Origin: a virus | UHGV virus genome: UHGV-0090440 | DNA: 64,000 nt | Direction: 5' to 3' (one strand) | In this document: positions 10,331-63,397 of the stretch, piece after piece | How positions within the stretch are numbered: the first letter of the stretch is position 1 | Layout: each line of letters begins with the position of its first letter | Program-made: the position numbers and the translations under genes | Notes under the pieces: generated by a model | Told to the model about the DNA's origin: nothing | What the model saw: only the letters and a program-made list of their open reading frames with translations | The model's database searches: none

Positions 10331-10370
10331 CCTCTCACTCCATTATTCAACGAATAAAAAAGCTGCGGTG

Positions 10371-10592: not shown

Positions 10593-10593
10593 C

Positions 10594-10680: not shown

Positions 10681-10802
10681 AATTGTTGTGGTTACCGGTA
10701 CTGATCTCCGGCTTAGCGACCCCGGCTACTGACTGCATTGCAGTGTGTGAACTCGCCTCGTGTGTCGCTGGGGCATTTCTTTCCGCGCATCAGTCTGCGC
10801 AT

Positions 10803-10882
10803 CAACCACAACGGAAAGAGCATTGGCTAACCAGGCTCGCCGACTCTTCACGATTATCGGCCCAATGCTCTTACCTGTTGTG
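10803..10882 (-). ncRNA. structured element, family member E3
   Basis: Arms CAACCACAACGGAAAGAGCATTGG / CCCAATGCTCTTACCTGTTGTG with a 34-nt insert. Confidence 0.3.
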
Positions 10883-11061
10883 CGCTCCGTTTCGTGGAGC
10901 TAACGGCGGGTGATCGGGCCGCACCAGACTGGACTTATTTCAGCGTTATGCTCATGCCAGAGAATCAAACTGTGATGGTCGGTGCTGAACTCCGACACAG
11001 GGTTGTAGCAAGCCCCGCAAAGCGCGCACTACTGTAGTTGCGGCACATCAGCCTGTGCATT

Positions 11062-11161
11062 CACCACAATGTTGAGAACACTGGTTGTCACGCTGCCTCG
11101 CGACCTTTATTCATAGATTGGGATATGACCCCGTTACGCCAATGTTCTCAACGTTGTAGTG
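11062..11161 (-). ncRNA. structured element, family member E4
   Basis: Arms CACCACAATGTTGAGAACACTGG / CCAATGTTCTCAACGTTGTAGTG; insert contains an AGGCAG-loop hairpin. Confidence 0.3.
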
Positions 11162-11297
11162 CCGGTTACGGTTCCGGCCAGGCTTCTTCCTCAACGGGGT
11201 GTTCTCCATACGGACTACCGTTTATTGGTCGTTCCTGCGGTTTATGTTGTGAAGCCAGATGCTTATCTTCTGGTTGCTTCAAAGAGCTGCACTTCAT

Positions 11298-11384
11298 CAC
11301 AACGGTAAGGGTACTTCGTAGGGATTCGAACCCTCTGCCAAGCTCGGCGATCTCCGACGTCGCAAAATACCCTTACCTGTTGTG
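11298..11384 (-). ncRNA. tRNA-like element E5 (no anticodon arm)
   Basis: 16-bp stem CACAACGGTAAGGGTA/TACCCTTACCTGTTGTG enclosing a D-arm-like hairpin (GCGA-CGTCGGAGA-TCGC) and a T-arm-like hairpin (GAGGG-TTCGAAT-CCCTA); starts 2 nt after the tRNA-Thr 3' end. Confidence 0.35.
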
Positions 11385-11385
11385 T

Positions 11386-11461
11386 TGGTGCCGGTTAACG
11401 GACTCGAACCGCTGACATCCTGCTTACAAGGCAGGCGCTCTACCAACTGAGCTAAACCGGC
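11386..11461 (-). tRNA. tRNA-Thr (anticodon UGU)
   Basis: 76 nt: acceptor GCCGGTT/AACCGGC, D-arm GCTCAGTTGGTAGAGC, anticodon loop CTTGTAA, T-loop TTCGAGT, encoded CCA. Confidence 0.9.
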
Positions 11462-11465
11462 AATT

Positions 11466-11552
11466 TGGTGGGGAGTGATGGAGTCGAACCACCCGAGTCG
11501 CAATGACAGTAGATTTACAGTCTACCCCGCTGCCCCTACGGACTAACTCCCC
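11466..11552 (-). tRNA. tRNA-Tyr (anticodon GUA), type II
   Basis: 87 nt: acceptor GGGGAGT/ACTCCCC, anticodon stem-loop GTAGA-CTGTAAA-TCTAC, long variable arm, T-loop TTCGACT, encoded CCA. Confidence 0.8.
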
Positions 11553-11557
11553 TAAAT

Positions 11558-11632
11558 TGGCGATGGTGGGTGGATTCGAACCACCGACCAGTTGGTTAAC
11601 AGCCAACTGCTCTACCGCTGAGCTACACCATC
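11558..11632 (-). tRNA. tRNA-Asn (anticodon GUU)
   Basis: 75 nt: acceptor GATGGTG/CACCATC, D-arm GCTCAGCGGTAGAGC, anticodon loop CTGTTAA, T-loop TTCGAAT, encoded CCA. Confidence 0.9.
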
Positions 11633-22000: not shown

Positions 22001-22973
22001 TTGCCGATTTGAGTGTTGAATCATCCGTGTCGGGGATCATCTCCAGGAAGGTTTCCGGGTGTTTACGCAATACCCATACGTCCACCACGGTATCTGTACC
22101 GGATTCGCTGAACGTACCGGAAGGCATACGATGTGCGCCCAAAAATTCCGCTTTACGGCTGACTTTATCGCGCAATTTTTTATATTTCGTACCATCGGTC
22201 ATGCCATTCGGCACCACCAATACGATAAGCCCACCAGGCTTAACCTTGTCGATCGTGCGCAGCACAAAGTAATTGCCAACGTTCTTCTCGTTTGCATATG
22301 CCGGATCAAGCCCGGCGACACCGGAACGCCCTTCACCAAACGGTACGTTACCAACAGCGTGATCATACATTGCGTCTTTCGCCGCCAGCGCCTCAAACGC
22401 CCCGATATTCACATCGTCTTCCGGGTGCAAAAGCTGGTTTATTCGACCGGAAATCGGAGACAGTTCGGCGCTGGTCATTATCATGCCCTGTCGTTTTGTC
22501 TCCTGGAAAATACCTGTGCCCGCTGATGGTTCCAGTACGTGCCCGCCATCAATACCGTAGTCAGCAAACAGATCCCATATACCTTCAGCCATAAACTGTG
22601 GCGTGTAGTATTCGTATTGGCTGCCCTCACCATCTGTCAGGCCGCCTTCACCGGTATACCCGGCAAGAATCTGACGCTGTTCGTCAGTTAATTTCGCCCC
22701 ATCGAAGCCGGGCGGAAGGGAATTAAGAAGCTCTACTGCGGCGTTGTTTGCTGCCCGCCGTGTTTTTTGAATACTGACACCATCGACTTTCTTAACGCCA
22801 AAGGTCGCAACAGCACGTAATTTATGCAACCGGCTAACAATCTCAATCAGTTCGCCTAAGCTGGAGGCTTCACTGATTGAATGAAGTAGTTTATCCAAAG
22901 GATTACCCCCTCTAAACCGTAAAAAATCCGCTATGCGGTACGGTTGAGAGGGTATGGAGAATGTTATTTTCAC
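16056..22973 (-). CDS. darB: DarB-like antirestriction protein (N6-adenine methyltransferase fused to DExH/SNF2-type helicase)
   Basis: 2305 aa; MTase motifs VLEPSAGTGIF (SAM-binding) and NVPFG; helicase motifs GTGLGKT (Walker A), ADEGHNYRN (DEGH), LTATPLVNSP, QRNGRGARVG (motif VI). Size and architecture match P1 DarB as recalled. Confidence 0.85.
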   Translation of the reverse strand: MKITFSIPSQPYRIADFLRFRGGNPLDKLLHSISEASSLGELIEIVSRLHKLRAVATFGVKKVDGVSIQKTRRAANNAAVELLNSLPPGFDGAKLTDEQRQILAGYTGEGGLTDGEGSQYEYYTPQFMAEGIWDLFADYGIDGGHVLEPSAGTGIFQETKRQGMIMTSAELSPISGRINQLLHPEDDVNIGAFEALAAKDAMYDHAVGNVPFGEGRSGVAGLDPAYANEKNVGNYFVLRTIDKVKPGGLIVLVVPNGMTDGTKYKKLRDKVSRKAEFLGAHRMPSGTFSESGTDTVVDVWVLRKHPETFLEMIPDTDDSTLKSANVLWDTFLKGKWFTTEGKRFVYGDMERTSFRNTLVVKKDGRVSNESMKTALSRRFESRINWDLLGVTTQAWQGAKVGDKRLVGGIWHEFDGLQWVKDATTKSSVLDVSRYGVSTFGDLQTTFQSTNGILALSWGQISAIASDYPSVISDEVAAMIRFAGKQREKDRERIMRGALIGQLINKALDKRNLGENVDDELADAARLTAAEVAKYGPPHAIKLNDITEAGAKNWLTFTGNVNQDGEASDLLSGRLDVSKGAAGIDFTRPEQVVTHLFSDVALNPINLDDFREAFKGELPEDDDQALEYLAKFDDIAIDGYGCLLPMGRATSGDIKSKVALLVGWRDASTGERKANFERQLSKIEEKRTFTPLNKVTVNLNARWLDRRLIKEFLAEQGYDEFKYTEPDLKVENGILVSPDDYEGKDGVFTGYQLRTVNGKNGNEFKKANNKDGFLNQLENYLNGVKPRGQNANEYLDKIAQLETSFNDWLRTHPQADQIARDYNDAFNGYIPFTHSDAPLGLEGISGKRIPLSYQNEEVRRLSEDGRGIMGFGTGLGKTTTALALEAYNFETGRTKRTCIVVPKAVYQNWYHEAQSFYSADAFANMMFIGLDEVRDGDGNIQTAPVLDQDGTPRLDNDGNPITRNVVKESASAVIAQRMNMIPSSNWRTVIMTKEQFASIPLRDETIGENSQQAVFNAAEMGRLDLASGKHRDAQKKNKIKDQAANTGTAKKQNIPYFEDMNFDSVIADEGHNYRNSFGAGREAGQLAYLPNPAVSKMARDMAVKAAYMMKRHNGRGVVMLTATPLVNSPIDAFNMLSTVIPQHEWMHMGIITPDDFVRVFGKTATVQVQKISGEVEEKQGLVGFQNLDGLRGIFHRWTTLKTASDVGATVKIPDIVENTLQIPMTPEQQAAYEELRKRAQELSRGDDVTVDDEGNITREKPDDFIFSIIRDMDKVAIDPDLYASAITFQFPVELTEQVKSIANNLPKVAGGKAADDAEEAEEDATGGLVSTRTSKVVATTFSEHPNHVELRASIDLEAEILKAIADAGIDMKQVSHPIPPKYAALIENLREGLKNGKQIIFIDEKAQHQKLRRIIASALQMSEQEIGIINATTVSQAGGVKLKKVKKPTEPTPNKDGEYKEGAWETYYSKLAQYEDYLSAKNDAGLEGMEGIAADYNEGRTRIIICNKKAEVGINLHIGTTDIHHLTLPWTPASIDQRNGRGARVGSPQEKVNVHYYCGKGTFDDFRLDTLKRKKDWIKMVMTSDMSEIANGDADDADERAIMLAANPEERRAIMARQSKEREERLRLKAQREANNALDNYLKAANAAGKDIGMMEAELKSAMEQAQRYQSDLDGLIKSGTNKNGQKYTLSALSKAKKRVRELRFAITRAKDADTVMKRSRGDVERAIKSGVLDISIDVIQNPQEYMRTGKNILLHKGSYYRAVIDAEYETTAIVRVTQIEGEKAQYTCRVAWLDRASRHSRSPGSTMTLPFDSVVEAVTFEEGVAESREIAARGVQSHQLSTSLSRDQFYDAIRSGVMRVTGRDRGGWQGAPDVNYWAYRNANGQIQMAFTYGGMIGQKISASGSDEIAPEQWIYPDVNDEALKREVAKIQTGDNPLRISEAEGFLRALFGFDYEQGMEAWGAQATMDDVVKAFDGWMAGRDLSGRSLEKVTQEDVRSLFRKPNGEGLETYWRGVLSFRDFQGRMKAFTNGSEISQMFEQLRTSKITTKIEKTRMALNAWRDALFDQYKMQSDADGWASLASLAGQSVYSAQLSISNADNPLETSATVWIKAGALIHAFEDKSITRDDFADADSLNRLVGMAIRHANALKAGGYVEELPDALKSATWDDFVSLKNSGATESEIAERLAAAKTEREEQADAAENKADEAANDDYIIVVNDKPIRAKARVRGRWWSVSEDAGAVYLIADMPGSSSIRNAKDAIKKIGGRFWNFEVNPVADVDFDRPAWMVSTRYSIDEVRKIIEAAA

Positions 22974-33449: not shown

Positions 33450-34010
33450 ATGCTTATTGGATACATTCGCGTATCAACTAATGACCAAAACACAGCTTTA
33501 CAACGAAACGCCCTTGAAAGCGCAGGATGTGAGCTAATTTTTGAGGATAAGGCGAGCGGCAAAAAGGCTGAACGCCCTGGGTTAAAAAAGGTTCTCCGTA
33601 TGCTTTCCAGAGGTGACACCCTAGTCGTATGGAAGTTAGATCGTCTTGGGCGCAGTATGCGTCACTTGGTTGTGCTGGTGGAAGAGCTTCGTGACATAGG
33701 CATTAACTTCCGGAGTCTCACTGACTCCATCGACACCAGTACACCAATGGGGCGCTTTTTCTTTCACGTAATGGGGGCGCTGGCAGAAATGGAACGTGAA
33801 CTTATTGTTGAACGTACACGAGCTGGACTTGATGCAGCTCGCGCAGAAGGTCGAATAGGTGGGCGTCGGCCTAAATACCAGGAAGAAACATGGCAGCAAA
33901 TGCGGCGATTGCTGGAGAAGGGCATCCCCCGTAAGCAGGTTGCAATCATCTATGATGTGGCTGTTTCCACTCTTTATAAGAAGTTTCCGGCGTCATCATT
34001 TCAATCCTAA
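33450..34010 (+). CDS. cin: Cin-type serine DNA invertase
   Basis: 186 aa; MLIGYIRVSTNDQ catalytic-serine N-terminus, C-terminal HTH; near-colinear with P1 Cin as recalled; sits directly beside an invertible segment. Confidence 0.9.
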   Translation: MLIGYIRVSTNDQNTALQRNALESAGCELIFEDKASGKKAERPGLKKVLRMLSRGDTLVVWKLDRLGRSMRHLVVLVEELRDIGINFRSLTDSIDTSTPMGRFFFHVMGALAEMERELIVERTRAGLDAARAEGRIGGRRPKYQEETWQQMRRLLEKGIPRKQVAIIYDVAVSTLYKKFPASSFQS

Positions 34011-34147
34011 ACCTTGGTTTAAGAGAACTCGGTACCAGCGGTGAAAAGATCCCCCTGTTGAGCACGGCTAACACATGGAGTGCGCGCCAGACTTTCAACG
34101 GCGGGATCACCGGGGCGCTGACAGGGAACGCCGACACCGCGACGAAA
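34011..34147 (+). repeat. left 137-bp inverted repeat of the C-segment (contains cix core)
   Basis: Exact reverse complement of 40067-40203 by direct comparison; starts with AAACC-TT-GGTTT (34011-34020), a hix/gix/cix-type crossover core. Confidence 0.85.
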
Positions 34148-36463
34148 CTTGCGACGGCAAGAAACATCAACGGTGTTAAATTTGATGGTTCTGTGGACAT
34201 TTCGATACCAACAATTACGTCCAGAGGGCGTGTTACTGCGCTCACCGGTACAACACAAGGTGCTGCTACTGGATTGCAAATGTATGAGGCGTACAACAAC
34301 GGCTATCCTTCTGCTTACGGGAATGTGCTTCATCTTAAGGGCGCAACGGCAGTTGGTGAAGGTGAGTTGTTCATAGGTTGGAGCGGTACAAGTGGCGCTC
34401 ATGCACCTGTACATGTACGTTCGCGACGAGATACTGATACAGCCAGTTGGTCAGAGTGGGCGCAGGTCTACACATCGAAGGATTCCATCCCTGGTGTAAA
34501 TACCACGGGCAACCAGAACACAACCGGAAACGCGGCGTCTGCAACGAAATTACAAACGGCAAGAACTATTGGTGGTGTTTCATTTAATGGCACCGCAAAC
34601 ATCGACCTGCCGGGCGTGAATAAAACAGGCAATCAGAGCACTACCGGCAATGCAGCTACAGCCACAAAACTGCAAACAGCACGCACCATTAATGGGGTTT
34701 CATTTGACGGAACGGCTAATATTTCTCTGTCACCGGCAAATATTGGTTGCCCGGCATCTCCTACTGGTTGGCTTGAAACAGGTGATAATGGAGCATCAAT
34801 AACAACAGAGCAATTAGTGACTCTGCTACGAGATAATGGTGCTTTTAATGCAAAGGTATGGATAGCGCGTTGTGCCTGGGCGTATGCAAATAGTGCATCC
34901 ATACCAGACAGCGAAACAGGATGCGGCATTATTCCACTGGCTGGCGCAGTTATAGAGGTATTTAATAATAGCAGTAGCACGAGTTATTTTACCATTCGTA
35001 TAACAACGGCAACGACGACAAGTGTATCTGGCGCACTCACTAATGCTGAATTTATCTATGTGTCTAATGGCACAAGTTATTCACCAGGATGGCGCAGAGC
35101 GTATAACACTAAAAACAAACCTACTGCGGCTGATGTCGGAGCTTTACCACTATCTGGAGGAGCGTTAACTGGCGGATTAACTGCTGCTGGCGAGATTATT
35201 TCCAAATCGGCGAATGGTCTGCGCATTGCCTATGGCAACTATGGATTCTTTATCCGTAATGACGGCGGCAGCACATATTTCATGCTAACAGCATCAGGAG
35301 ATACGTTAGGTTCATGGAACAGTTTGCGACCGATTACAATTAATAATACCAGCGGTGTTGTGTCTATTGGTAATGGACTAAATGTTACTGGTGGCGTTAA
35401 TGGTAGTTTGAACGGTAATGCAGCGACAGCGACCAAGTTACAAACCGCTAGAACTATAAATGGGGTGTCGTTTGATGGTTCTAAAAATATTGAGCTAACG
35501 GCGGAAGATTTAAATCTTGAGCAAACTGTAGAATTAGCCGCAGGAGCATTGCAGAAAAACCAGAACGGCGCAGATATTCCGGGAAAAGATACCTTCACTA
35601 AAAATATTGGTGCATGTCGCGCTTTTCACAGTTCTATTAGTACAGGTGCAGGGAACTGGACAACGGCACAATTGATTGAATGGCTGGATTCTCAAGGGGC
35701 ATTCAATCACCCATACTGGATGTGCAAATGTTCATGGTCATACGGCAGTAATAAAATTATTACTGACACCGGATGTGGACTTATTCACCTTGCGGGTTGC
35801 GTTATTGAAGTTATGGGCTATAAAGGCGCCATGACCATTCGTATAACCACACCGAGTACCTCTAACGGTGGTGGCACTACGAATGCGCAATTTATATATA
35901 TTAACCACGGTTCAGAGTATTTACCTGGCTGGCGACGTGACTACAACACGAAAAACCAGCAGCCTGCATTTGCTTTAGGGCAGACAGGAAGCATAGTTGG
36001 AAATGACAAAGCTGTTGGATGGAACTCGATTAGCGGGGTTTATAACGCTAATATTGGTGGATCATCTACGTTGATTCTCCATTTTTATATGGGAGCTGGT
36101 AGTTGTCCGGCTGTTCAGTTCCGCGTGAATTATAAGAACGGCGGTATTTATTATCGTTCTGCGCGTGACGGTTATGGTTTTGAAGCCGACTGGTCGGAAT
36201 TTTATACTACAACACGTAAACCATCTGCGGGAGATGTTGGGGCATATACCAAAGCAGAATGTGATTCACGATTTATTACAGGTATTCGATTAGGTACAAA
36301 ATCGTCTGTGCAAACATGGAATGGTCCTGGATGGAACGATAAATCTGGTTATGTTGTTACTGCCTCAATTAACTCAAATAAGGACGAACTTATTGATACA
36401 ACTCAGGCAAGGCCGCTGCAGTATTGTATCAATGGTACATGGTATAACGCGGGAAGTATTTAA
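34058..36463 (+). CDS. alternative tail-fibre C-terminal cassette (Sv'-like), silent in this orientation
   Basis: 801-aa frame beginning with TTG inside the inverted repeat; first 30 aa identical to residues about 420-450 of the 1286-aa fibre; contains [15 protein letters not shown](N/G)GVSFDG repeats. Confidence 0.7.
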
Positions 36464-36465
36464 TT

Positions 36466-36999
36466 ATGCAGCATTTAAAAAACATCAGATCAGGTAATCC
36501 AAAAACTGTTAAACAATATGAATTGACGCGACAATTTGGTGTTGTCTGGTTGTATTCTGAAGACGGTAAAAACTGGTATGAGGAACAAAAGAACTTCCAG
36601 GATGACACTATAAAAATTGCTTACACATCAGATGGAGTTATTGTGGCTATAAATAAAGACGTATCTACAATAAATCCAGAAGGTTTAAGTGTGGTTGAGG
36701 TTGCTGACATTACCGCAAATCGCCGTGCTGACATTTCTGGTAAATGGATGTTCAAAGATGGCGTAGTGATAAAGCGAACTTATACCGAGGAAGAACAGAG
36801 GCAACAAGCTGAAAATGAAAAGCAAAGCCTATTGCAACTTGTCAGGGATAAAACCCAACTGTGGGACTCACAGCTACGGCTGGGCATCATTTCCGATGAG
36901 AATAAACAGAAATTAACCGCGTGGATGCTATATGCGCAGAAAGTAGAATCTACAGATACCTCCATCCTGCCAGTAACGTTTCCCGAACAACCAGAATGA
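36466..36999 (+). CDS. tail-fibre assembly chaperone (U'-like), alternative copy
   Basis: 177 aa; strongly similar to the 37027-37554 product (GNPKTV.QY.LT..F...W...[19 protein letters not shown]). Confidence 0.75.
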
Positions 37000-37026
37000 G
37001 AAAAGGCCCGTTATCGGGCCTTATTT

Positions 37027-37554
37027 TTACTCAGGTTTTTGTGGCCATTCTGGCTTTGACGTATCCACGCGGCTTACAAGAACGCTGTAGCGTTCCCATG
37101 CTTCCAGTCGGCTGTGGTCCTCATCCGTTGCCATATTCAGCCTTACTGCACGCTCTAGTAGTTGAATGACTGATTCAGCATCAGCAAGAAGTCTGGCTTT
37201 CTGATTTTCTACCTGCTGCTGTAATTCCTCTGCCGTATAAATACGTTTAATAACTGCGCCATCCTTAAACATCCAGTTACCAGAAATGTCGGCACGTCGG
37301 TTAGCAGTAATATCCGGCACTTCAACAACACTTAATCCATCCGGTCTGATAGCTGTTACATCCTTTTCCACATAGCGGATGATGTTATCTTTGTCATACG
37401 CTAATTTTATCGTGTCATCCTGGAAGTTCTTTTGTTCCTCATACCAGTTTTTACCGTCTTCTGTAAAAAACCAGATGACATCAAAATGTTTCGTCAGCTG
37501 GTATTGCTCAACTGTTTTTGGATTACCCGCTGTTATATTGATCAAATGCTGCAT
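37027..37554 (-). CDS. tail-fibre assembly chaperone (U-like), expressed copy
   Basis: ORF track start 37629; ATG 37554 preferred ([13 protein letters not shown], 5 bp after the fibre stop), about 175 aa. Confidence 0.75.
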
Positions 37555-37558
37555 AAAT

Positions 37559-40500
37559 TTAAACCTGTGCCACGTTATACCATGTTCCATTAATCTGTTT
37601 CTGAACCGGCCTGTAATATACACCTCCAATATTATCGGCAGAATTCGAGCCGGTATCCTGGACTATAATGCCAGTATAAACGCAGCCTGATGGTGCCTGA
37701 TGCGTCCATGTCGAGGTGTTATTTGCTGGTTTATATGTAGATGCTCCACCAAGTCGCATGTCTCTTACATAACGAGAATCAAAGTTACCGTAATCCGAGG
37801 GGTTAACACGCCCTGTAATATTTATGGTTTTATTACTTTGAATGCTGCCGGAGACAAAGCGCATAACATGAACGTTATTAGCATAAACGTCCAGATTACC
37901 GTCGCCATTTTGTTTAAAGCCCGTGTCATTATCACCCAAAACAATCGAGTTACCGCCAAGAGCACTGGATGTTCCGATGCCCAGTGCACCATTCAATTGA
38001 CCGCCAGATAATGACAACGCCCCAACCTCAGCAGCAGTCGGTTTAATGTGCGAACTGTAAATTACATATACAGTTCCATCTGTCAGGCCTGTTGGTTTAT
38101 TCGCTGTATAAGTTGGTGATGTATGAATCGTTACGCTGGCGTTACTGGTATAATCCCACTGAATATTAACACCTGTGGCGTAATTACCTATTTCAACATA
38201 AACATCATAGGTATCACCGGATGTATTCACCCATGCAAAATTAGTAAATCCAACCGAGGTCCGTCGCCATAATGCACCAGTAATACCTTTTGGATTTCCA
38301 TTTCCTGCACGCAGAACCAGCTCAGAGATGCCTGCTTGCTGCGGGGAGCCAACGTTAAACCCTGCACCACCAATCAGGCTTATGTAAACCACGGAACTGG
38401 CCTGTGGCATGGTTACAGTTGCCAGTTTGAACCATCCAGCACCACCACTAAAAGACATTGTTGTGGAGTTGATCGTGCCTATAGACCGTGGGTTAAGTTC
38501 AATATCTTTAGAACCATCAAACGAGACGCCGTTGATAGTACATGCTGTCTGCAACTTGGTCGCTGTCGCTGCATTACCGGTAGTGTTCTGATTACCTGTT
38601 TTATTCACACCTGGCAGGTCGATATTGGCACTACCATCGAATGACACTCCGCCTATTGTGCGTGCTGTTTGCAGTTTTGTTGCAGTTGCAGCATTACCGT
38701 TCAAACTACCATTGATGCCGCCAGTAACATCCAGACCATGCCCCATGCTTATCCGACCAGTTCTAAGATTAAGCGTAAAGGGACGTAGTGGCCCTATATC
38801 ACCATTTTCCCCCTCATTCTCTCGTGTAGGGATGATATGCAGGCATTCTTCAGAACGACGAAAAATAGCACCAAAAGATGAATTAAATATCCTTAGTGCA
38901 TTGACTGTCGATATTTTTACTTCACTGCTGAAAAGGGCTTTAACAAGGACAGACAAAGCATCCCATTTAAGATTCATCAGGTCTTTTGTTGTGGTGCTCT
39001 GGCGACTTCTCCATTTGAAATATTCATTGCCGTTGTCGCCTGTTTCAAACCACATGTATGAATCAGTATCGCTGTCGGCATCATTTTTAAAACCAATCTT
39101 CGCCCAGTCAGTATTCCGAATCCAGGCAAGGATTGAGTCGTTTTCAAAAGTAAGTCCACCGGACAAGGTATCGCCTGTCTTTTGAACCGCGTTATCAGCC
39201 TTGTTTACCGTTTCCTGTAGATTTAAATCTTCCGCCGTTAGCTCAATATTTTTAGAACCATCAAACGACACCCCATTTATAGTTCTAGCGGTTTGTAACT
39301 TGGTCGCTGTCGCTGCATTACCGGTTGTGTTCTGATTACCTGTTTTATTCACACCTGGCAGGTCGATATTGGCACTACCATCGAATGACACTCCGCCTAT
39401 TGTGCGTGCTGTTTGCAGTTTTGTTGCAGTTGCAGCATTTCCTGAAAGGCTTGAAACAAACTGATGTGAGCAGTAATAACCACGTCCATTTTTAAAATCC
39501 AGAATGGTTTGAGTATTTGTACTTTCTGCTACTGGATCTGTGGCCCCCCACTTATAGGTGGCTTGACCAACGGTATAGTCAGTAGTAGGAACAATTACGT
39601 TCAAGCCCTCCTCAGCAAATATCTTGATAGGAAATGCTCTGGCTTCAACGTAAAATACACTACACAAATCGTCATCTTTCACACTTGAAATAATCGAGTG
39701 TATAGCTCGCTCAGTAGTAGAATATATTGAGAAAAAACCAGCTGCATATGAACCGCGATCAGACCAACCGCCAGGCATAACAAAACCATTAAATTCACAA
39801 TTATTCATGGCGTATCCGCCAGCTGAGGAATAAGTAGTTATCACAACTCGTGAGGCTAATTCATCGGTACTGCCTCCAGATCGGCGAAAGACTATAGGAT
39901 ACCACTTACCGCTTACTGCATTTGCAGGCGCTGAAAAAGTGTATTTTCTCATCCCTTTTTTATTGTCTATTTCGCTTTTGCTGTAAACGTCCAGATCTTT
40001 AGGAGTCAACGTAATGTCAGCCGAACCATCGAACCTGACGCCATTAATGTTTATGGCTGTTTTCAATTTCGTCGCGGTGTCGGCGTTCCCTGTCAGCGCC
40101 CCGGTGATCCCGCCGTTGAAAGTCTGGCGCGCACTCCATGTGTTAGCCGTGCTCAACAGGGGGATCTTTTCACCGCTGGTACCGAGTTCTCTTAAACCAA
40201 GGTATTGGATAACGGCCAGTGTGCTTGTTTTAGCCAGAATATCTCGACCGACTGACGTTAAATCAGTCTGCGCTACCGTATCCTTACCAGTGAAATAAGG
40301 CAGTTTGTTTGCGCCTGTCGCAAGACCAGCAAGCGCGGTTAAAGTTGCATCAAGTGGCTGTTTCCCTGCCAGCGCATTTGTCATTGTTGTCGCAAAGTTC
40401 GGGTCATTGCCCAGTGCTGCTGCAAGCTCATTCAGGGTATCAAGAGCTTCAGGTGATGAGCCGACCAATGCAGAGATAGCAGCCCGTACGTAAGCAGTCG

Positions 40501-41419
40501 TAGCGATCTGCGTATTGTTTGTGCCCTGTGCAGCCGTAGGCGCAGTAGGGACACCCGTTAATGCAGGGCTTGCCAAAGGCGCTTTGAGAGCCAAGGCATT
40601 GTTGATAGTTGTGCTGTAATTCGGGTCGTTATTGATCGCAGCCGCTATTTCTTTCAGCGTATCCAGTGTGCCAGGCGCACCGTTGATAAGTGCAGTTATA
40701 GCTGCCTTAACAAAGGCTGTATTTGCGATCTGCGTGCTGTTTGTGCCTTGTGAGGCCGTAGGCACTGTCGGCGTACCTGACAGATGCGGACTATTGAGCG
40801 GAGCTTTTGTATCAACCAAATCATGAAGAGTTTTGACAGCCAGAGGTGTAGCCGCTTTTCTTTCTTCTGTACTGCTTATTTCATTAGAGAATTCGACACC
40901 AACAGCACGGTTAACTCGGTATTTAAGCACAATCATTTCTTTAGTCACAGCCGTTGCGCCGCCAGGCACGATAACTCGACATAATTCAATTTGATTCTGC
41001 CCAATAGCATTGTCCGTACGCGCGAAAATTCTTGCAGCACTGACAGAAGATGCGCTATCTACCTGTGTCGTTTTTACACCATGTTCAAAATTGGCTTCCA
41101 GCACAATAATGTTGGTAGCCCCAGCCTTTACCGAGACAGTCACATCTTCTATTTGCTGAACGGATATCTGAACATTATTTACATCTACTGAAGCAGCCCC
41201 TTTACCTTCTGAGTTTTCAGAAGTTATACGGACGCTCAACCCTGTGCCGGGAACTGGTTCAAATCCACAGTAAAAGCCCGGCAAAACAATATTTTTAAGT
41301 TTTCTGTTAAGAGCAGAACTACTATAGAGTTCGAAATATTGAACATCAGCAAGCAACGGCTGTGAGACACCAGAGGATAGTGTCATTATGTTGTTCGTTT
41401 TATCAGCACCCATAATCAA
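37559..41419 (-). CDS. tail fibre (constant N-terminal part fused to current variable C-terminal part)
   Basis: 1286 aa; the invertible-segment junction falls at about residue 407-450; repeated [41 protein letters not shown] blocks. Confidence 0.8.
38553..38695. repeat. direct repeat copy A inside the tail-fibre gene
   Basis: About 143 bp, near-identical (one mismatch seen by eye) to 39297-39439. Confidence 0.7.
39297..39439. repeat. direct repeat copy B inside the tail-fibre gene
   Basis: Partner of 38553-38695, 744 bp away and in frame. Confidence 0.7.
40067..40203 (-). repeat. right 137-bp inverted repeat of the C-segment (contains cix core)
   Basis: Reverse complement of 34011-34147; lies inside the tail-fibre gene at the constant/variable junction. 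Confidence 0.85.
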
Positions 41420-48654: not shown

Positions 48655-49476
48655 TTAATAATGGTTAGCCATCCATTCAGATCTAATTGATGGGATAAAC
48701 TCTCTATTGAGAAAGGGGACGTACAGTGTGGTTGTCACATCTGCACCCTCCTTAGCGTTTTTGCAATGTTGCGGAGGCAGGATCAGTCGGCTTGAGCCTC
48801 TCTCAATAGACATTTTCAGGCCGTGGCGTAGGTCTTTTTGCATAAGCTGTATGCGAGCCACAAGCGGGGTAAATTCGGTTTCAAGCGCCATGCTTTCAAT
48901 GATGTCAAAGCGTCGGTTAGCGGCCTGCGTGAAGTCCTCCGGATCGTCTTCAAGCGCCGTGCATAAAGCGAGTTCAGCAATTCGCATCCGTGCTACGCCA
49001 GCACTGTATTCGGGAGTTTTCATATCAGGAAGTGACGCTCGCATTCGTTCAAGGAGTTCCGCGCCTTTCCCGGTTAATGGTTTAAGTATCCAGTCAGTTG
49101 GTACTCCATTTACTGGTACGTTGGTTTTCACGTAAGGAGGTACAGTGAGTATTTCTACTGTTTGGGCCAGGTCGCTCAGGTTAATATCTGCATGATGCGT
49201 ATTACCGCAGTGACTGCACTCATAGGAGTAGGTCATTACTGCATCGGGGCGCGAATTAACAAATATCCACCAAAGAGCAGTTCTGCGGTCCTGAACTGTC
49301 CAGTTAGCACTGTCGTTAATTTCACCATCCTGCATAGAGTTAAGGTACTCTGTAGTCGTTGCCTCATCTTCTGCCGGGTTCAGGTCAGAATATTTCAGCG
49401 CATCCTTCACGGTAGGGGCGTGGAACTGAATTTCTGTCTCAGGACGGGAAGGCAATGGGAATTTTGGAATGTTCAA
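48655..49476 (-). CDS. hypothetical protein (first gene of tape-measure/baseplate operon)
   Basis: 273-aa ORF divergent from the repA region. Confidence 0.5.
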   Translation of the reverse strand: MNIPKFPLPSRPETEIQFHAPTVKDALKYSDLNPAEDEATTTEYLNSMQDGEINDSANWTVQDRRTALWWIFVNSRPDAVMTYSYECSHCGNTHHADINLSDLAQTVEILTVPPYVKTNVPVNGVPTDWILKPLTGKGAELLERMRASLPDMKTPEYSAGVARMRIAELALCTALEDDPEDFTQAANRRFDIIESMALETEFTPLVARIQLMQKDLRHGLKMSIERGSSRLILPPQHCKNAKEGADVTTTLYVPFLNREFIPSIRSEWMANHY

Positions 49477-49581
49477 TTATTCCTCCGAAAAGCAGGTATC
49501 TGTTCATTTTCCAGAGGATAGGGAGTGTGTGATTTGCGATGGGGATTGAATGAAGATCTTTGCCGGTCGAGAAGCGATTAT

Positions 49582-49860
49582 TGAGGGTGATTTTTACACC
49601 TTAAGTGACGCTACTCACATATCCACAGAGTATTTTTATAAACCTTTTTCCATTTTTAATCCTTTTTAGATCCTTTTTAGGCGTCGCTGGAGCCAGTAGT
49701 GGCGCGGGCTGTAGAGGAGGCTGGTGTAAGATTTGCCCTCAATTAAATACGATCGGTGTAAGATTTGCCCTCAGAAGGTGTAAGATTTGCCCTCAAAAGG
49801 TGTAGTAATTGCCCTCAAAGTGGTGTAAAAATTGCCCTCACCATTTGAAGGATCACACAG
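49582..49860. promoter_or_regulatory. plasmid replication origin region (oriR-like)
   Basis: Inverted iteron (49582-49600), DnaA-box-like ATATCCACA (49619-49627), AT-rich tract with GATC sites (49555, 49669, 49751, 49850), then five direct 19-bp iterons overlapping the repA promoter. Confidence 0.6.
49723..49840 (+). repeat. five direct 19-bp iterons GGTGTAAGATTTGCCCTCA (incC-like)
   Basis: Copies at 49723, 49755, 49777, 49799 and 49822, with 1-3 substitutions each. Confidence 0.8.
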
Positions 49861-49864
49861 GGTT

Positions 49865-50620
49865 ATGAACAGAGCGGAATTAACAGCAAAAGCCGTCAGC
49901 CTGATTGAGTCAGCGACACCTATTAGTCGTAGTCTGGCACAAGCCAATGAGATCACGGAGGCTGCTTATCACCTGACTCGCGACCAAAAGCGACTGTTGT
50001 TTATTGTGGTGGGAAGACTTCGCTATGCTTCTAAGGATGGCGTTCTTGGTTCAGGTGCCTGTGAGTTGACGGTCAACGAATATGCAGAGATGTATAATTT
50101 GCCCTCTGCTGAAGCCAGCAAGGATATTCGTAAGGCCATTTCAGGGCTTAGCGAGAAGAAAGTTACGATATATAACCCTGATGAATCGACCGAATCAGAA
50201 GACAGTTATGAGTCTTATCCCTGGATGATTAAGGATGCCTATTCACCACGGCGCGGGACTTACATTATTCATCTTAATCCATATCTCATGCCGTTTTTTA
50301 CTCTGCTTGATAAGAGATTCACAAGGCTGAATTTTACCGAAGTATCTCGCCTTACAAATCCTTATTCTATGCGGCTTTATGAGTCCTTATGCCAGTACAG
50401 GAAGGATGATGGAAGCGGCTTTGCCATACTTGGCGTCGAATGGATGCGGGAGCGTTATGGGTTACCAAAAAGCTATCAGCGGTATGCCGAATTTAAGAGA
50501 AGTTTTTTAACGAAGGCTGTAGCAGAGATTGAAAAAAATACAAAAATGAAAATAGTCTTCTCAGAGGTGACGGAAGGCGGCAAAGTTACCAGGATAAAAT
50601 TTACCTATCAGCAGTCTTAA
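49865..50620 (+). CDS. repA: iteron-binding replication initiator (RepA-like)
   Basis: ORF track start is TTG 49832 inside the last iteron; ATG 49865 preferred (252 aa); flanked on both sides by iterons, as in P1/F-type replicons. Confidence 0.7.
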   Translation: MNRAELTAKAVSLIESATPISRSLAQANEITEAAYHLTRDQKRLLFIVVGRLRYASKDGVLGSGACELTVNEYAEMYNLPSAEASKDIRKAISGLSEKKVTIYNPDESTESEDSYESYPWMIKDAYSPRRGTYIIHLNPYLMPFFTLLDKRFTRLNFTEVSRLTNPYSMRLYESLCQYRKDDGSGFAILGVEWMRERYGLPKSYQRYAEFKRSFLTKAVAEIEKNTKMKIVFSEVTEGGKVTRIKFTYQQS

Positions 50621-50914
50621 GGGCAATTTTTACACCCCTCTCAAGGTGTAGAATTTGCCCTTAACGATCGGCAATTGAGGGCAATTTTTACATCTTAATT
50701 GCATGTATCTCGTTATTAGCAAGTTGTGTTTTTATATAACGTATTGATATGTAAGGATTATGTAAAAATCGCCCTCAACCAATATCGTGCGTATCGTGCA
50801 TTCTTATTGCGCTTTTTTATTATCATTCACTGTGTTAACTGATTGATATTATTGAAATATGTAAAGAATGCCTTCATTGCTGATGGATTGATGATGTAAA
50901 AAATGCCCTCAACA
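50621..50914. repeat. downstream iteron array (incA-like copy-control locus)
   Basis: At least six iteron copies in both orientations (50621, 50646, 50677, 50760, 50860, 50896), consensus ATGTAAAAATNGCCCTCA. Confidence 0.7.
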
Positions 50915-51001
50915 TTGCGCTACCTTCCCTACCCGCTATCGTTGAGGTCGTGGGTGCTGACGGGAAATGAGCAACCCTCCAGCACACATAATTAAAGCTA
51001 T

Positions 51002-51709
51002 TCAGAATTTGATCACTCCACTCACAGCCCCCTTTAACGCGCTTGTAGCCATGCCAGCGGCACCGTTGACCAAAGCAGAAACACCTGAGCCTGCGGATGT
51101 GTATTTCTGGAAAGTGATTGGATATGACAAGAACTCTGACACCTGGTCTCGTGAGCGGGTGATTTCCCCAAGTTGAGTGGGGAATACGCGCATTTCCTCT
51201 TCCAGTTCTTTACCGCCATCCTGAGTTACCCGGTAGAGCCGGATCTTCATTAGATATTCAGGAGGAAGGTTTATTGTTCCGTCCGGGTTTGTCACGCGGG
51301 AACGACGCTCTTTGAACCAGTTCATGATCTTGCCGTCTTCGGTATCCCTTACGGTCATCGTGACTGGTCCGGCGGTGACGTAGGTTGGCTTGCTGAACTC
51401 TACGCTACCTATCACCTTGTTTTCTGTCTCGATATTTCCGCTGCTGTAGGTGATATCCTTCACGAACATATCGAAACCGTTCAGACCGTCCACTTCAACC
51501 GTCCACTGCCATCCCTGGGCGTAACGAATACGCATAGCGGCAGCAACAATATTTTTCCCGTAGGCAATATCGCTGCTGTAGTTCCCACTTACCCCGCCGC
51601 CGGATATTGCTTTATCCAGAATGTCGCTAATGAGGTTGCTGGTGAATGATTTTGTGTTAAATGACAGTGCGGTGGTCAACGTTCTGCCAACGCTGCTGAA
51701 AATACTCAC
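51002..51709 (-). CDS. virion structural protein
   Basis: 235 aa, last gene of the head/tail operon. Confidence 0.45.
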   Translation of the reverse strand: MSIFSSVGRTLTTALSFNTKSFTSNLISDILDKAISGGGVSGNYSSDIAYGKNIVAAAMRIRYAQGWQWTVEVDGLNGFDMFVKDITYSSGNIETENKVIGSVEFSKPTYVTAGPVTMTVRDTEDGKIMNWFKERRSRVTNPDGTINLPPEYLMKIRLYRVTQDGGKELEEEMRVFPTQLGEITRSRDQVSEFLSYPITFQKYTSAGSGVSALVNGAAGMATSALKGAVSGVIKF

Positions 51710-60974: not shown

Positions 60975-61135
60975 CTGTATTCTCACTTCATTCTCAAATA
61001 AATCTCACTGTCAGACCATAATTCATTGGGTGATTAAGGTATTCTCAAAATGAACTCAATAATCACTCCTTTTTATCTCTTTTGGTGTGGATTTTTGGGT
61101 GCTTCTCTTTTAAAATTGCATTTTGGTTCTCAAAT
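60975..61135. promoter_or_regulatory. parC-like centromere/promoter region
   Basis: Iterated (A/G)TTCTCA(A/C) elements (60978, 60990, 61040, 61125) plus degenerate copies, upstream of parM. Confidence 0.45.
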
Positions 61136-61159
61136 GTGTCTCAGAAGTGGAGCAAGAAG

Positions 61160-62116
61160 ATGCGCATTTTTATCGATGATGGTTCAACCAATATCAAAAT
61201 GCTGTGGGAGCACGACGGGGAAACTCGCACTCACATCAGCCCTAACAGCTTTAAGCGCGGATGGTCAGCAACATTTGGTGCTGGCAAGCCGTTTAACTAT
61301 GTCATTGACGACGAAAAGTATTCGTATGATTTGATCTCGCCAGATGTTCTGCCGACGAATAACGTGGAATGGCAATACAGCCCGCTTAACGTCCTGGCTG
61401 TTCACCATGCCCTGCTGACAAGTGGCATTGAGCCGCAGGAAGTAGAAATTGTGGTCACGCTGCCTCTGGCGGAGTTTTACGACGACGACGCGCAATACAA
61501 TCTCGATAACATCGAGCGCAAGAAAGCCAGTCTTATGCGCCCCGTCACGCTGAATAAAGGCAATGTGTTCACGATTAAGAAAGTTACGGTACGACCGGAG
61601 TCTATTCCGGCAGGAATTGGCCTGTGCGACAATCTGAACCCTGCCCATTCTGTTCTTATCGTCGATTTGGGTGGAACTACCCTTGATGTTTCAATGGTCG
61701 CCGGGCAAATGACGGCAGTTTCCCGTGTTTTTGGCGATTCGAATCTTGGTGTATCACTGGTCACCAGGGAAGTAAGGCAAGCACTTGCAAGGGCCAATAC
61801 CGAAACGTCAAATTACAATGTCGATCAGCTCATTATTAACCGCCACGATGAAGATTATCTGAACGACAATATCAATGACCCATCAGCGATTGATGATGTG
61901 AAAAAGGCCATTGCCGCAAGCATTGACCGTTTGTGTACCCGCGTTCTTGATGTGATTGGCGACTTTAAAGGATATACGCATGTCATGGTGATCGGTGGTG
62001 GCGCACCGCTGGTGGCAGATGCAATTCGCGAGCAAGTTAATATTCGTGATGACCGTTTCTTCGTGGCGGATGACCCGCAACTTGCTCTTGTTCATGGCCT
62101 GAAAGCAATCGGTTAA
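61160..62116 (+). CDS. parM: ParM/StbA actin-like partition ATPase
   Basis: ORF track start 61082; ATG 61160 (MRIFIDDGSTNIKM) preferred; near-colinear with R1 ParM as recalled (ISPNSFKR, VNVLAVHHALLTSG, LIVDLGGTTLDVS, YTHVMVIGGGA). Confidence 0.85.
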   Translation: MRIFIDDGSTNIKMLWEHDGETRTHISPNSFKRGWSATFGAGKPFNYVIDDEKYSYDLISPDVLPTNNVEWQYSPLNVLAVHHALLTSGIEPQEVEIVVTLPLAEFYDDDAQYNLDNIERKKASLMRPVTLNKGNVFTIKKVTVRPESIPAGIGLCDNLNPAHSVLIVDLGGTTLDVSMVAGQMTAVSRVFGDSNLGVSLVTREVRQALARANTETSNYNVDQLIINRHDEDYLNDNINDPSAIDDVKKAIAASIDRLCTRVLDVIGDFKGYTHVMVIGGGAPLVADAIREQVNIRDDRFFVADDPQLALVHGLKAIG

Positions 62117-62592: not shown

Positions 62593-62755
62593 TGGGGCTG
62601 ATTTCGTGTTAAACAGGATGCAATATAAGGTGTATTTGGTCTGATTGATGTTATACTTTGCCAAACATTCATGACTCCATTATAGAGCCTGTCCCGCATC
62701 AAAAAGGCTCTTATCTGGAACCGTTTTGATACCAAAATCACACCGAGGAACGGAT

Positions 62756-63397
62756 ATGATTATATTGGTAGCCAGCCAAAAAGGTGGCTGTGGCAAATCA
62801 ACCACCAGCGTAAATATTTGTGCGGAGCTTGCCCGCGCAAATAAGGACGTAGTTCTACTTGATGCAGATAAGCAAGGAACATCTGCCCGTTGGGCATCGG
62901 ACCGTAATGCGGCAGAGGTTTCTCCAGTAATTCATTGCGTCCAGAAGTTTGGGAATATTCGTGAAACACTTCTTGATCTGGACAAGCGTTATGAATTTGT
63001 GGTTGTTGATACCGCTGGTCGTGATAGCAAAGAAATGCGCACCGGTATTACTGCGGCGGATGTTTTGCTTGTTCCATTCAGGCCATCTCAGCCAGATTTA
63101 GACACTCTGGCGCATTTTGTTGAAGTCTTTGAAGAGGCTTTGGATCTGATGCCTAATCCTAGCATTAAGGCGTGCGCAGTCTTAACAATGGCCCCATCCA
63201 ATCCGGTTGTGAATGAAGCCAATGAGGCCAAAGAGTACCTGGCTGAATATCCGCAACTGAAGTTGCTGAAAACCATCATTCGCGATCGCAAGGTTTACCG
63301 CGATTGTATGGCTGAAGGGAAGGGCGTTGTTGAGATGGACAACGGGAAAGCTAAAGGTGAAATCCAGATGTTGGTTAAGGAGTTATTAAGTGATTAA
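62756..63397 (+). CDS. parA: ParA/ParF-type partition ATPase
   Basis: ORF track start 62726; ATG 62756 preferred (GAGGAA RBS); deviant Walker A KGGCGKST; about 213 aa. Confidence 0.8.
   Translation: MIILVASQKGGCGKSTTSVNICAELARANKDVVLLDADKQGTSARWASDRNAAEVSPVIHCVQKFGNIRETLLDLDKRYEFVVVDTAGRDSKEMRTGITAADVLLVPFRPSQPDLDTLAHFVEVFEEALDLMPNPSIKACAVLTMAPSNPVVNEANEAKEYLAEYPQLKLLKTIIRDRKVYRDCMAEGKGVVEMDNGKAKGEIQMLVKELLSD

Follow-up and report, generated by a model that had tools for sequence, protein, structure and literature searches.

Iteron-controlled replicons comparable to the locus described here are known from the F plasmid and from phage P1. In mini-F, a DnaA box is followed by an AT-rich stretch, phased iterons, a promoter/operator of about 95 bp with the inverted repeat GTGTGACAA...TTGTCACAC, the initiator gene and a second iteron array (incC), and, within each iteron, RepE WH2 contacts bases among the 5' seven (PMC4980987). 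In P1, a DnaA box and five origin iterons come first, the last of them close to the rep start (autoregulation through iterons), followed by the rep gene and a further array that contains iterons of either orientation. P1-like elements have been stated to be IncY or p0111 (PMC11165635, PMC9603915, PMC7969092). Furthermore, phage D6 (NC_050154) is a known plasmid prophage whose orf42 is annotated as putative plasmid replication initiator, and a 2019 paper on pYU39_89 mentions "repB associated with iteron sequences" (PMC6799933). A literature search retrieved no experimental characterisation of the D6-type replicon (replication, Rep binding, incompatibility) and no statement on D6-P1 compatibility.

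The window analysed here is a stretch of 64,000 nucleotides (64 kb) of the virus genome UHGV-0090440. Its replicon region is 99.0% identical to phage D6 over 1599 bp, with the same flanking genes, and about 110 plasmids, each roughly 90 kb in size, likewise match it at 99% identity. The element is therefore already known, being the annotated replicon of phage D6, and is ordinary in kind. Of 5426 complete E. coli genomes, 88 carry it, in each case on a plasmid. MOB-suite assigns it to a cluster of its own (rep_cluster_1704), the sole replicon reported for these plasmids, and neither the D6 annotation nor MOB-suite lists another initiator except the lytic repL. Record NZ_CP027382 (36 kb) was considered as a natural mini-replicon and rejected, since it represents a linear incomplete contig. 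Based on the observed sequence features, homology and conservation, the cassette listed in Table 1 very probably serves a D6-like phage-plasmid as its low-copy, theta-type plasmid replicon in the prophage state.

Table 1. Coordinates of the replicon cassette, its elements and its flanking genes in the window.
Feature	Position	Strand	Description
pmgB homologue, left flank	48655-49476	-	Tail/baseplate morphogenesis, late operon; D6 annotation
RepE-type replicon cassette	49537-50947	+	1.4 kb; absent from sibling plasmid NZ_CP066033
Upstream inverted iteron	49582-49600	-	GGTGTAAAAATCACCCTCA on minus strand
DnaA box	49619-49627	+	ATATCCACA, 8/9 match to TTATCCACA; aligns with F ori2 DnaA box
AT-rich stretch	49630-49681	+	52 bp, GC 0.37; putative unwinding element
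Origin iteron array	49723-49840	+	Five direct 19-bp iterons, starts spaced 32/22/22/23 bp
Origin iterons 1-3	49723-49741, 49755-49773, 49777-49795	+	Exact copies of GGTGTAAGATTTGCCCTCA
Origin iteron 4	49799-49817	+	Variant GGTGTAGTAATTGCCCTCA
Origin iteron 5	49822-49840	+	Variant GGTGTAAAAATTGCCCTCA
rep gene	49865-50620	+	251 aa, Rep_3 (WH1+WH2) initiator, F RepE type
Iteron-like site inside rep	50089-50107	+	GATGTATAATTTGCCCTCT; encodes MYNLPS, just before WH1 recognition helix
Downstream control array (incA/incC-like)	50618-50911		Six iterons, mixed orientation
Downstream iterons	50618-50636 (-), 50645-50663 (+), 50676-50694 (-), 50759-50777 (+), 50858-50876 (+, weak), 50893-50911 (+)
Relic P1-type RepA iterons	50950-50989		Inverted pair, outside functional arrays
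Relic P1-type iteron	50950-50967	+	GTGGGTGCTGACGGGAAA
Relic P1-type iteron	50975-50989		CCCTCCAGCACACAT, reverse complement of P1 core ATGTGTGCTGGAGGG
tub (tail tube) homologue, right flank	51002-51709	-	D6 annotation

The sequence-only reading had described the locus as a P1/F-type iteron replicon, of which, by descent, the F-type part is borne out and the P1-type part is not. The encoded protein, identical to D6 orf42 (100%), matched Pfam Rep3_N (PF01051, 2.9e-29) and Rep3_C (PF21205, 9e-16), both above gathering cut-offs, and aligned over its full length with the RepE structures 1REP, 2Z9O and 7UXY (E about 1e-73). The possibility that the protein is unrelated to Rep initiators was checked, and Rep_3 domains together with 50% identity to F RepE over 228 aa were found. 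BLASTP against P1 RepA and p0111 Rep yielded E values of 0.057 and 0.027, respectively, so that BLAST detected no relationship to either, and P1 RepA scores 25.7 bits on Rep3_N. By descent the replicon is of the F RepE/ori2 type and not of the P1 type, P1 RepA being only a remote Rep_3 relative.

Among Rep relatives in the database, a gap separates the D6-type clade (57-100% identity) from the F-type proteins (about 50%). No change is seen in the WH1 helix, whereas the WH2 helix region differs in a clade-specific manner that parallels the altered half of the iteron. The position equivalent to RepE R118 (monomerising R118P) is D in the window and R or K in clade relatives, and was uninformative. 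In variants of 89-91% identity, rep showed 63-73 nucleotide differences and 1-4 amino-acid differences only. Purifying selection on Rep is strong, and across these 9-11% diverged variants the iterons, too, are selectively conserved.

Scanning the 64 kb with the degenerate core TGTADDWWTBGCCCT (at most one mismatch; expectation derived from shuffles) revealed 12 iteron-like sites, all within 49582-50911 (cores inside 49584-50909), versus a chance expectation of 0.40. Five phased direct copies precede rep, one inverted copy lies upstream, and six copies of either orientation follow downstream; the iteron consensus of the D6-type replicon is GgTGTAAaAaTTGCCCTCA. The five direct 19-bp iterons and the second array of at least six iterons in both orientations, as noted from the letters alone, were recovered at the positions given in Table 1, and with them the oriR-rep-incA layout. 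The earlier statement that the iteron sequence is unlike that of P1 was also confirmed, since Rep and iterons alike show no resemblance to those of P1 (IncY) or p0111. The differing iterons support the suggestion that the replicon would form an incompatibility group separate from P1.

Phased direct sites with a spacing of about 22 bp, presumed to bind the initiator, thus lie beside the rep gene, and this geometry recurs in relatives with 57-78% Rep identity. These relatives have a DnaA box together with 5-6 phased iterons; their last core lies 41-47 bp ahead of the ATG, and their stop codon coincides with an inverted iteron. In the variants of 89-91% identity, 97% of the iteron columns of the origin array were invariant, as opposed to 76% elsewhere (Fisher P = 1e-7). 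Both the pMIN14 variant and the E. fergusonii variant retain the upstream inverted iteron unchanged, and in diverged relatives the iterons stand out as conserved islands.

The origin leader is similar enough to F ori2 for a DNA alignment, which covers the DnaA box, AT-rich stretch and 3' half of the iteron. Regarding the DnaA-box-like element mentioned earlier, its position stood while its match score did not: 14 boxes with 8/9 matches were seen in the window versus 15 expected, so that a single box alone is not significant, but it is kept in all variants and occupies the same relative place in the relatives L014, L016 and L018. Beside the iterons, the box is accompanied by the AT-rich region, in which the 11-mer ATCCTTTTTAG occurs in tandem (49659-49669 and 49670-49680) and the segment TATTTTTATAA...TTTTTAGATC aligns with F ori2 and is nearly invariant in diverged variants. 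The GATC sites pointed out in the same reading are present (49555, 49669, 49751 and 49851) but not conserved; only 49669, within TTTTTAGATC, aligns with F, the AT-rich region holds this one site, and relatives contain 0-2. GATC is therefore no conserved feature of the D6-type replicon. The cumulative GC-skew shows a minimum at about 47-49 kb, a weak signal confounded by gene orientation.

An overlap of the iterons with the rep promoter had been claimed as well, and here only the geometry holds. No sigma-70 candidate near rep exceeded the background of random windows in a consensus scan and with an own PWM, and the overlap is deduced from the mere 24 bp separating iteron 5 from the ATG. The best local candidate, an extended -10-like TGTAAAAAT within iteron 5, is speculative. 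Because the last iteron ends so close to the ATG, and the gap contains no inverted repeat, there is no room for an F-type inverted-repeat operator between iterons and rep. Autoregulation through a dimer-bound operator is therefore unlikely, and the promoter would have to lie in or before the iterons. An Rfam scan for antisense or other known RNA control gave no match at E up to 1.

Downstream of rep, invariant columns made up 83% in the iterons versus 31% in the spacers (Fisher P = 1e-18). The rep stop codon falls within the first iteron of this array, and every clade relative checked has an inverted iteron there. Moreover, the iteron-like site inside rep occurs at an equal offset (+217 to +229) in the relatives L016, L018 and L021 and is absent in L014. 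Its codons TAT AAT TTG CCC agreed in 11 of 12 comparisons, the background being 0.38 (P = 1.9e-4), which shows conservation of this site at the DNA level.

Backbone homology with NZ_CP066033 stops at about 49533 and restarts at about 50948, and the gene order is sit-pmgB-[replicon]-tub-pmgC-bplB. The pmgB homologue has a weak Pfam T4_baseplate match and is 98.8% identical to the NZ_CP066033 copy; in P1 and pO111_2 the pmgB-tub gap measures 14 bp only. All D6-group plasmids examined carry some replicon in this slot, the matched PLSDB records comprising about 111 with the RepE-type and 9 with the P1-type cassette. The replicon is a swappable cassette in the pmgB-tub slot of the late tail operon; a P1-type replicon can take its place, and two iterons of that type are left in the window. 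As a source of pmgB expression downstream of the inserted cassette, the P1 late-promoter motif (AAnTGACTn-N4-TAnAAT, from LPsit and LP23) was considered and dismissed, its count being not above chance; near 49600 it had no match.

The two remaining P1-type iterons include the one perfect match (15/15) to the P1 core in 64 kb, and the pair lines up with the end of the P1-type replicon in NZ_CP066033, where its last incA iteron and the tub junction lie. The E. fergusonii variant holds even better matches, and in relative L014 (78%) the P1-type motifs are triplicated and interleaved with E-type iterons. Given their place beside the replicon, some cross-talk with P1-type RepA would be possible. 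That they serve P1-type RepA as decoys or handcuffing sites, or provide homology patches for cassette exchange, rather than being inert scars, is considered unlikely. If the decoy reading were true, it would imply one-way incompatibility of D6-like plasmids against IncY-type competitors, CP066033-type siblings included; if the homology-patch reading were true, whole replicon cassettes would be exchanged between phage-plasmids at this place. The inverted pair was also considered as an intrinsic terminator for tub, for which it is a weak candidate (hairpin z = -0.9, without a U-tract).

Following the F and P1 paradigms, Rep monomers would bind the five phased origin iterons, and Rep together with host DnaA bound at its box may open the adjacent AT-rich 11-mer repeats, leading to helicase loading. 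The array ends directly before the ATG and an F-type operator is missing, so iteron-bound Rep would have to occlude or block the rep promoter, resulting in P1-style autoregulation. By the same analogy, the six downstream iterons are predicted to titrate Rep and to handcuff the origin, by which copy number would be held down and incompatibility set, and the intragenic site probably joins them in titration and handcuffing.

Assignment to the P1 type (IncY) or its p0111 variant could be argued from the overall oriR-rep-incA layout, the membership of the host element in the P1 supergroup, the literature assignments of P1-like elements cited above and the two P1-type iterons next to the cassette. 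However, the functional arrays are built on a different iteron, and P1-type iterons (GATGTGTGCTGGAGGGAAA, as in P1 incC/incA) are represented by just the two relic copies. Besides the BLASTP values of Rep given above, a tblastn search with P1 RepA as query found no P1 RepA-like gene in the window, and the replicon is not located beside parAB. The AT-rich leader has one GATC versus five in P1. Furthermore, pO111_2 (97.9 kb) showed no tblastn or blastn similarity to the cassette or Rep and no E-type iteron core, and the PlasmidFinder type p0111 was ruled out by this comparison. Judged by sequence membership, the P1-type assignment is already refuted, and its probability is close to nil.

The F-type relationship itself raises the alternative that the locus is F RepFIA (IncFIA), incompatible with F and regulated via the RepE-dimer operator, as RepE is the best characterised homologue (50% identity), 13 of 19 iteron positions agree with F including the whole 3' half, and the leader is alignable with ori2. 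Yet the D6-type iteron departs from the RepFIA iteron TGTGACAAATTGCCCT(C/T): the 5' seven bases, the WH2 contact region (PMC4980987), read CTGTGAC in F and GGTGTAA here, in parallel with the clade-specific substitutions in the WH2 helix region. Rep is far from a near-identical RepE and its identity distribution marks a separate clade. In addition, one DnaA box instead of two, five origin iterons instead of four, a downstream array of mixed orientation instead of the uniformly inverted incC and the lack of an inverted-repeat operator make identity with RepFIA very unlikely. A decaying or secondary replicon, with maintenance by another origin (oriL/RepL or an unrecognised initiator), might be suspected from cassette swapping at the slot with persisting relic iterons of the other type, from the lack of a promoter consensus and from the about 27 kb of plasmid outside the window. 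Against this, Rep and iterons are conserved across the 9-11% diverged variants, the layout is kept in distant relatives, none of the D6-group plasmids examined lacks a replicon at the slot (PLSDB about 111 + 9), and MOB-suite gives the D6 type as sole replicon, so that decay is regarded as highly improbable.

As an iteron replicon, the locus offers nothing new in kind; it is the annotated plasmid-maintenance origin of D6 and about 110 related plasmids. Newly seen are the cassette in the pmgB-tub slot, siblings with a P1-type replicon at the same place, the relic P1-type iterons and the conserved intragenic site. Its practical value lies in replicon typing of P1-like phage-plasmids: as a relative of F RepE, the D6-type replicon is neither IncY nor p0111, and screens with these two markers only would therefore miss or mislabel the D6 group. 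It also provides a modest, testable example of phage-plasmids that switch incompatibility group with virion genes unchanged, illustrated by two unrelated replicons alternating in one tail-operon slot, the P1-type relics, the intragenic site and the absent F-type operator.

Compared with known systems, p0111 (pO111_2, AP010962 / NC_013370) resembles the window replicon in serving P1-like phage-plasmids as an alternative iteron replicon, and both Rep proteins bear the RefSeq label 'RepB family'; p0111 Rep, however, comprises 294 aa, is 41% identical to P1 RepA and is located at the P1 repA locus with ATTGACTATACGCGA-type iterons. With P1 itself, the D6-type replicon has in common the order of its elements, with origin iterons almost reaching the rep start, and the role in maintaining a plasmid prophage of the P1 supergroup. 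It differs from P1 in its unrelated iteron, in the five GATC heptamers of the P1 origin and in location, as the P1 replicon abuts parAB after gene 23 and the D6-type replicon lies between pmgB and tub. The NZ_CP066033-type replicon (MOB-suite rep_cluster_2221) occupies the same slot in the same orientation within a near-identical backbone and shares the right-hand junction ...CAGCACACATAATTAAAGC, but encodes a RepA 84% identical to P1 RepA with 5 + 7 P1-type iterons and no E-type iterons. The closest characterised relative is mini-F ori2/RepE/incC, which likewise encodes a Rep of 251 aa with WH1 and WH2 and the identical WH1 recognition helix SAEASKDIR, and has 19-bp iterons phased at ~22 bp with AAATTGCCCTCA in common, the succession of DnaA box, AT-rich stretch with TTTTTAGATC and iterons, and a second iteron array 3' of the gene. 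Unlike mini-F, the window has an iteron-like site inside rep, and its partition system is not adjacent, being of ParM type and about 10 kb off (61082-62116). With the WH1 helix being the same, specificity presumably differs from F only in the WH2-contacted 5' seven bases of the iteron.

Based on sequence comparisons, the cassette between pmgB and tub essentially represents an iteron replicon with the P1-like oriR-rep-incA layout proposed in the sequence-only reading. The iteron arrangement described there for 49582-50914, i.e., five direct copies followed by a mixed-orientation set of six, was recovered. The origin iterons, comprising three exact copies of GGTGTAAGATTTGCCCTCA and two variants, form a direct array with spacings of 32/22/22/23 bp, and the first downstream iteron overlaps the stop codon of the rep ORF. 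A degenerate search of the whole 64-kb window with the core TGTADDWWTBGCCCT, allowing at most one mismatch, yielded 12 sites (consensus GgTGTAAaAaTTGCCCTCA), all located within one 1.3-kb stretch, as compared to 0.40 sites expected from shuffles. After the putative DnaA box, whose frequency is not above chance when taken alone, comes an AT-rich stretch of 52 bp featuring a GATC site and an 11-mer, ATCCTTTTTAG, in tandem.

The replicon region is 99.0% identical to that of Escherichia phage D6, in which the gene, orf42, bears the annotation of a putative plasmid initiator, and the element and its nature are thus already on record as the annotated replicon of this phage. Approximately 100 non-mobilizable plasmids of ~90 kb from E. 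coli, Shigella and Salmonella, assigned to MOB-suite type rep_cluster_1704, share 99–100% identity. Among 5426 complete E. coli genomes, 88 carried the replicon, on a plasmid in every case. For the D6 subgroup (P1-g2), 14 persistent genes between the replication and partition genes were described (Pfeifer et al. 2021, PMC7969092).

The protein, 251 aa long and encoded at 49865-50620, is related to Rep initiators: both Rep_3 winged-helix domains were detected (Rep3_N, 2.9e-29; Rep3_C, 9e-16), and the sequences of the mini-F RepE crystal structures (1REP, 2Z9O, 7UXY) match full-length Rep with E ~1e-73. Of the earlier designation P1/F-type, the F part holds by descent, whereas the likeness to P1 is confined to the layout. 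Furthermore, the F ori2 leader is homologous at the DNA level, with the DnaA box, TATTTTTATAA, TTTTTAGATC and the iteron 3' half ATTGCCCTCA aligning. In F, ~95 bp separate the last iteron from repE and contain the promoter as well as GTGTGACAA...TTGTCACAC, the inverted repeat to which RepE dimers bind. In contrast, this operator is missing in the window, where only 24 bp lie between iteron 5 and the ATG; a similarly short gap was observed in most clade relatives. The F iteron agrees with the window consensus at 13 of 19 positions, and all six differences are located in the 5' seven bases (GGTGTAA in the window, CTGTGAC in F). They fall in the half contacted by RepE WH2, which according to Nakamura 2007 (cited in PMC4980987) contacts GTG/GtCA. 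When clade and F-type proteins were aligned, the WH1 recognition helix SAEASKDIR showed no variation, and the WH2 helix region differed by group (PDFRRR in F-type proteins, (A/G)EFKRx in the clade). These observations fit a divergence from F in one half-site, and the replicon is therefore probably compatible with the F plasmid.

By analogy with the F and P1 control scheme summarised in PMC13028717 and PMC4980987, Rep monomers would bind the origin iterons, Rep together with DnaA would melt the AT-rich repeats, and the downstream array would determine copy number and incompatibility through Rep titration and origin handcuffing. Since the gap is 24 bp long and the F-type operator is absent, any rep promoter would overlap the array or be located upstream of it, and autoregulation would consequently have to proceed via iteron-bound Rep in a P1-like manner, as deduced from this geometry. 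A sigma-70 consensus above background was not found for rep. The cumulative GC skew is lowest at ~47–49 kb and flattens thereafter, although genes are minus-strand up to 58 kb, a pattern that agrees weakly with a switch of the leading strand at the replicon origin.

A decayed or secondary replicon and RNA-based control were considered as alternatives. Three diverged variants (pMIN14, an E. fergusonii plasmid and pSa1423; 89–91% identity) were aligned, showing invariant columns upstream of rep at 97% of iteron versus 76% of other positions (Fisher P = 1e-7) and downstream of rep at 83% versus 31% (P = 1e-18), where iterons appear as conserved islands amid diverged spacer. Moreover, 63–73 nucleotide changes within rep result in just 1–4 amino-acid changes. 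This selective conservation speaks against decay or a secondary role, which is unlikely, and RNA-based control found no support.

Distant Rep relatives in the protein database share 78%, 71%, 63%, 60% and 57% identity, and the loci of all but the 60% relative were compared. Their genomic contexts differ, and they have a common replicon plan consisting of a DnaA box, direct iterons phased at multiples of 22 bp and an inverted iteron at or immediately past the rep stop codon. Five to six origin iterons with 22-bp spacing are present in the 78%, 71% and 57% relatives, while three cores 44 bp apart were detected in the 63% relative at the search stringency used. The distance from the last origin core to the ATG is 41–47 bp in the window and the former three, and 60 bp in the latter. 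Downstream copy number is highly variable (1, 1, 6 in the window, 7 and ~18), the ~18 copies of the 63% relative far exceeding the six of the window and the one copy each of two other relatives. An iteron-like site within rep is unaltered in variants diverged by 9–10% and recurs at equal offset in the 71%, 63% and 57% relatives. Its codons TAT AAT TTG CCC were the same in 11 of 12 comparisons with these relatives, against a gene-wide codon identity at identical residues of 0.38 (P = 1.9e-4), and it probably is a real thirteenth Rep site.

Coordinates of features in the window and in loci of Rep relatives
Feature	Locus	Position	Strand	Remarks
Five tRNA genes	window	9056-11632	-	Met, Ser, Thr, Tyr, Asn
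Very long ORF	window	16056-22973	-	2305 aa
Cin-like serine invertase	window	33450-34010		beside long tail-fibre ORFs
Tail-fibre region	window	33450-41419	both	
Split late operon	window	48655-51709		continuous in P1 (pmgC-tub-pmgB-sit)
Inverted iteron	window	49582-49600		upstream of array
Putative DnaA box	window	49619-49627		ATATCCACA, 8/9 match
Exact iterons	window	starts 49723, 49755, 49777		GGTGTAAGATTTGCCCTCA
Variant iterons	window	starts 49799, 49822		
Iteron-like site in rep	window	50089-50107		GATGTATAATTTGCCCTCT; matches iteron core; encodes MYNLPS, right before WH1 recognition helix
Six downstream iterons	window	50618-50911	mixed	
P1-type motif	window	50950-50967		GTGGGTGCTGACGGGAAA; just past last E-type iteron
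P1-type motif	window	50975-50989		CCCTCCAGCACACAT; exact reverse complement of P1 iteron core
ParM/StbA-type partition ATPase	window	61082-62116		~10.5 kb off replicon; Pfam StbA_N 2e-69
Small ParA/MinD-like ATPase	window	62726-63397		near the partition ATPase
Downstream control region, 179-bp unit x3	L014 (78% relative)	4757-5290		= L020 10757-11290
~18 iterons, mostly inverted	L021 (63% relative)	5747-6853		over 1.1 kb 3' of rep
Two iteron replicons, tail to tail	L018 (57% relative)	4001-6472		

In P1 and pO111_2, pmgB and tub are separated by 14 bp inside the late LPsit operon, whereas in the window they lie 1.5 kb apart with the replicon inserted in antisense, splitting the operon. A P1-style late promoter motif near 49600, serving pmgB/sit beyond the insert, was not found. 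Adjoining the D6-type array are two mutually inverted P1-type motifs, one of which, CCCTCCAGCACACAT, is the sole 15/15 match to the P1 core in the window. A short search with this segment retrieved NZ_CP066033 (rep_cluster_2221), a D6-group sibling in which a genuine P1-type replicon occupies this slot in the same orientation. Its RepA is 84% identical to P1 RepA, and besides a DnaA box and GATC repeats it has five iterons of the incC type and seven of the incA type, the last of which adjoins tub with the junction ...CAGCACACATAATTAAAGC found also in the window. Since the window segment is collinear with the incA end of that replicon and shares this junction, the motifs are probably relic incA iterons from a replicon exchange; reading the inverted pair as a terminator is a weak alternative. 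Backbone homology stops at ~49533 and restarts at ~50948, delimiting a RepE-type cassette of 1.41 kb. The central head-to-head incA pair persists in the E. fergusonii variant, the relic is gone from pMIN14, and no E-type relic iterons were found in NZ_CP066033. PLSDB matches amounted to ~111 records for the RepE-type and nine for the P1-type cassette. The window pmgB shares 98.8% identity with that of CP066033 but only 81–89% with the pmgB genes of other RepE-type carriers; cassette type thus does not track backbone similarity, indicating a recent or repeated exchange, in either direction.

The 78% relative resides on a P1-supergroup-like contig with P1-type motifs on both sides of the replicon. 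Each of its 179-bp units holds two E-type iterons together with an inverted P1-type motif pair (GGTGTGCGCTGCAGGGAAGTTTCCCTCCAGCACAC), and degenerate P1-type motifs also occur upstream of the DnaA box; within 10 kb around the replicon, neither a second Rep_3 gene nor a P1-type rep was found. P1-type motifs were not found in the 71% and 63% relatives. In the 57% relative (Nissabacter sp. plasmid CP028040), an intact convergent second Rep of 294 aa directly adjoins, being 40% identical to p0111 Rep and having its own 64-bp-spaced repeats; this pair possibly represents a dual-replicon intermediate able to seed cassette swaps. Repeated replacement of P1-family replicons by the RepE clade would be the simplest reading. 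A functional role of the leftover P1-type sites, e.g., as decoys or in handcuffing, is possible but unsupported.

Elsewhere in the window, the small ParA/MinD-like ATPase, compared by D6 annotators to the C-terminal third of P1 ParA, may be a further remnant of a P1-type rep-par module. The tail-fibre region is the invertible segment governing host range that has been described for P1 and D6, and the very long ORF, judged by its size and position, may encode a DarB-like methyltransferase/helicase like that of P1-family phages. For pYU39_89, four tRNA genes were reported, the additional one in the window being Tyr.

Regarding typing, assignment to IncFIA fails: Rep is 50% identical to F RepE, and iteron, operator and protein identity all mismatch. 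As claimed in the sequence-only reading, the iteron differs from that of P1, the functional arrays being E-type. The literature on P1-like phage-plasmids distinguishes IncY and p0111 as their two replicon types (PMC11165635, PMC9603915, PMC7969092), and membership in either is contradicted by sequence and excluded. BLASTP revealed no detectable similarity between Rep and P1 RepA (E = 0.057), itself only a weak Rep_3 member. The p0111 replicon of reference plasmid pO111_2, located at the P1 repA locus next to parAB, has its own iterons and a 294-aa Rep 41% identical to P1 RepA; no similarity to the window was found in Rep (E = 0.027), cassette or iterons. Interest rests on this typing gap and the anatomy of the cassette swap rather than on the replicon as such. 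Belonging to neither IncY nor p0111, the D6-type replicon is, as judged by these comparisons, a third replicon type within the P1 supergroup.
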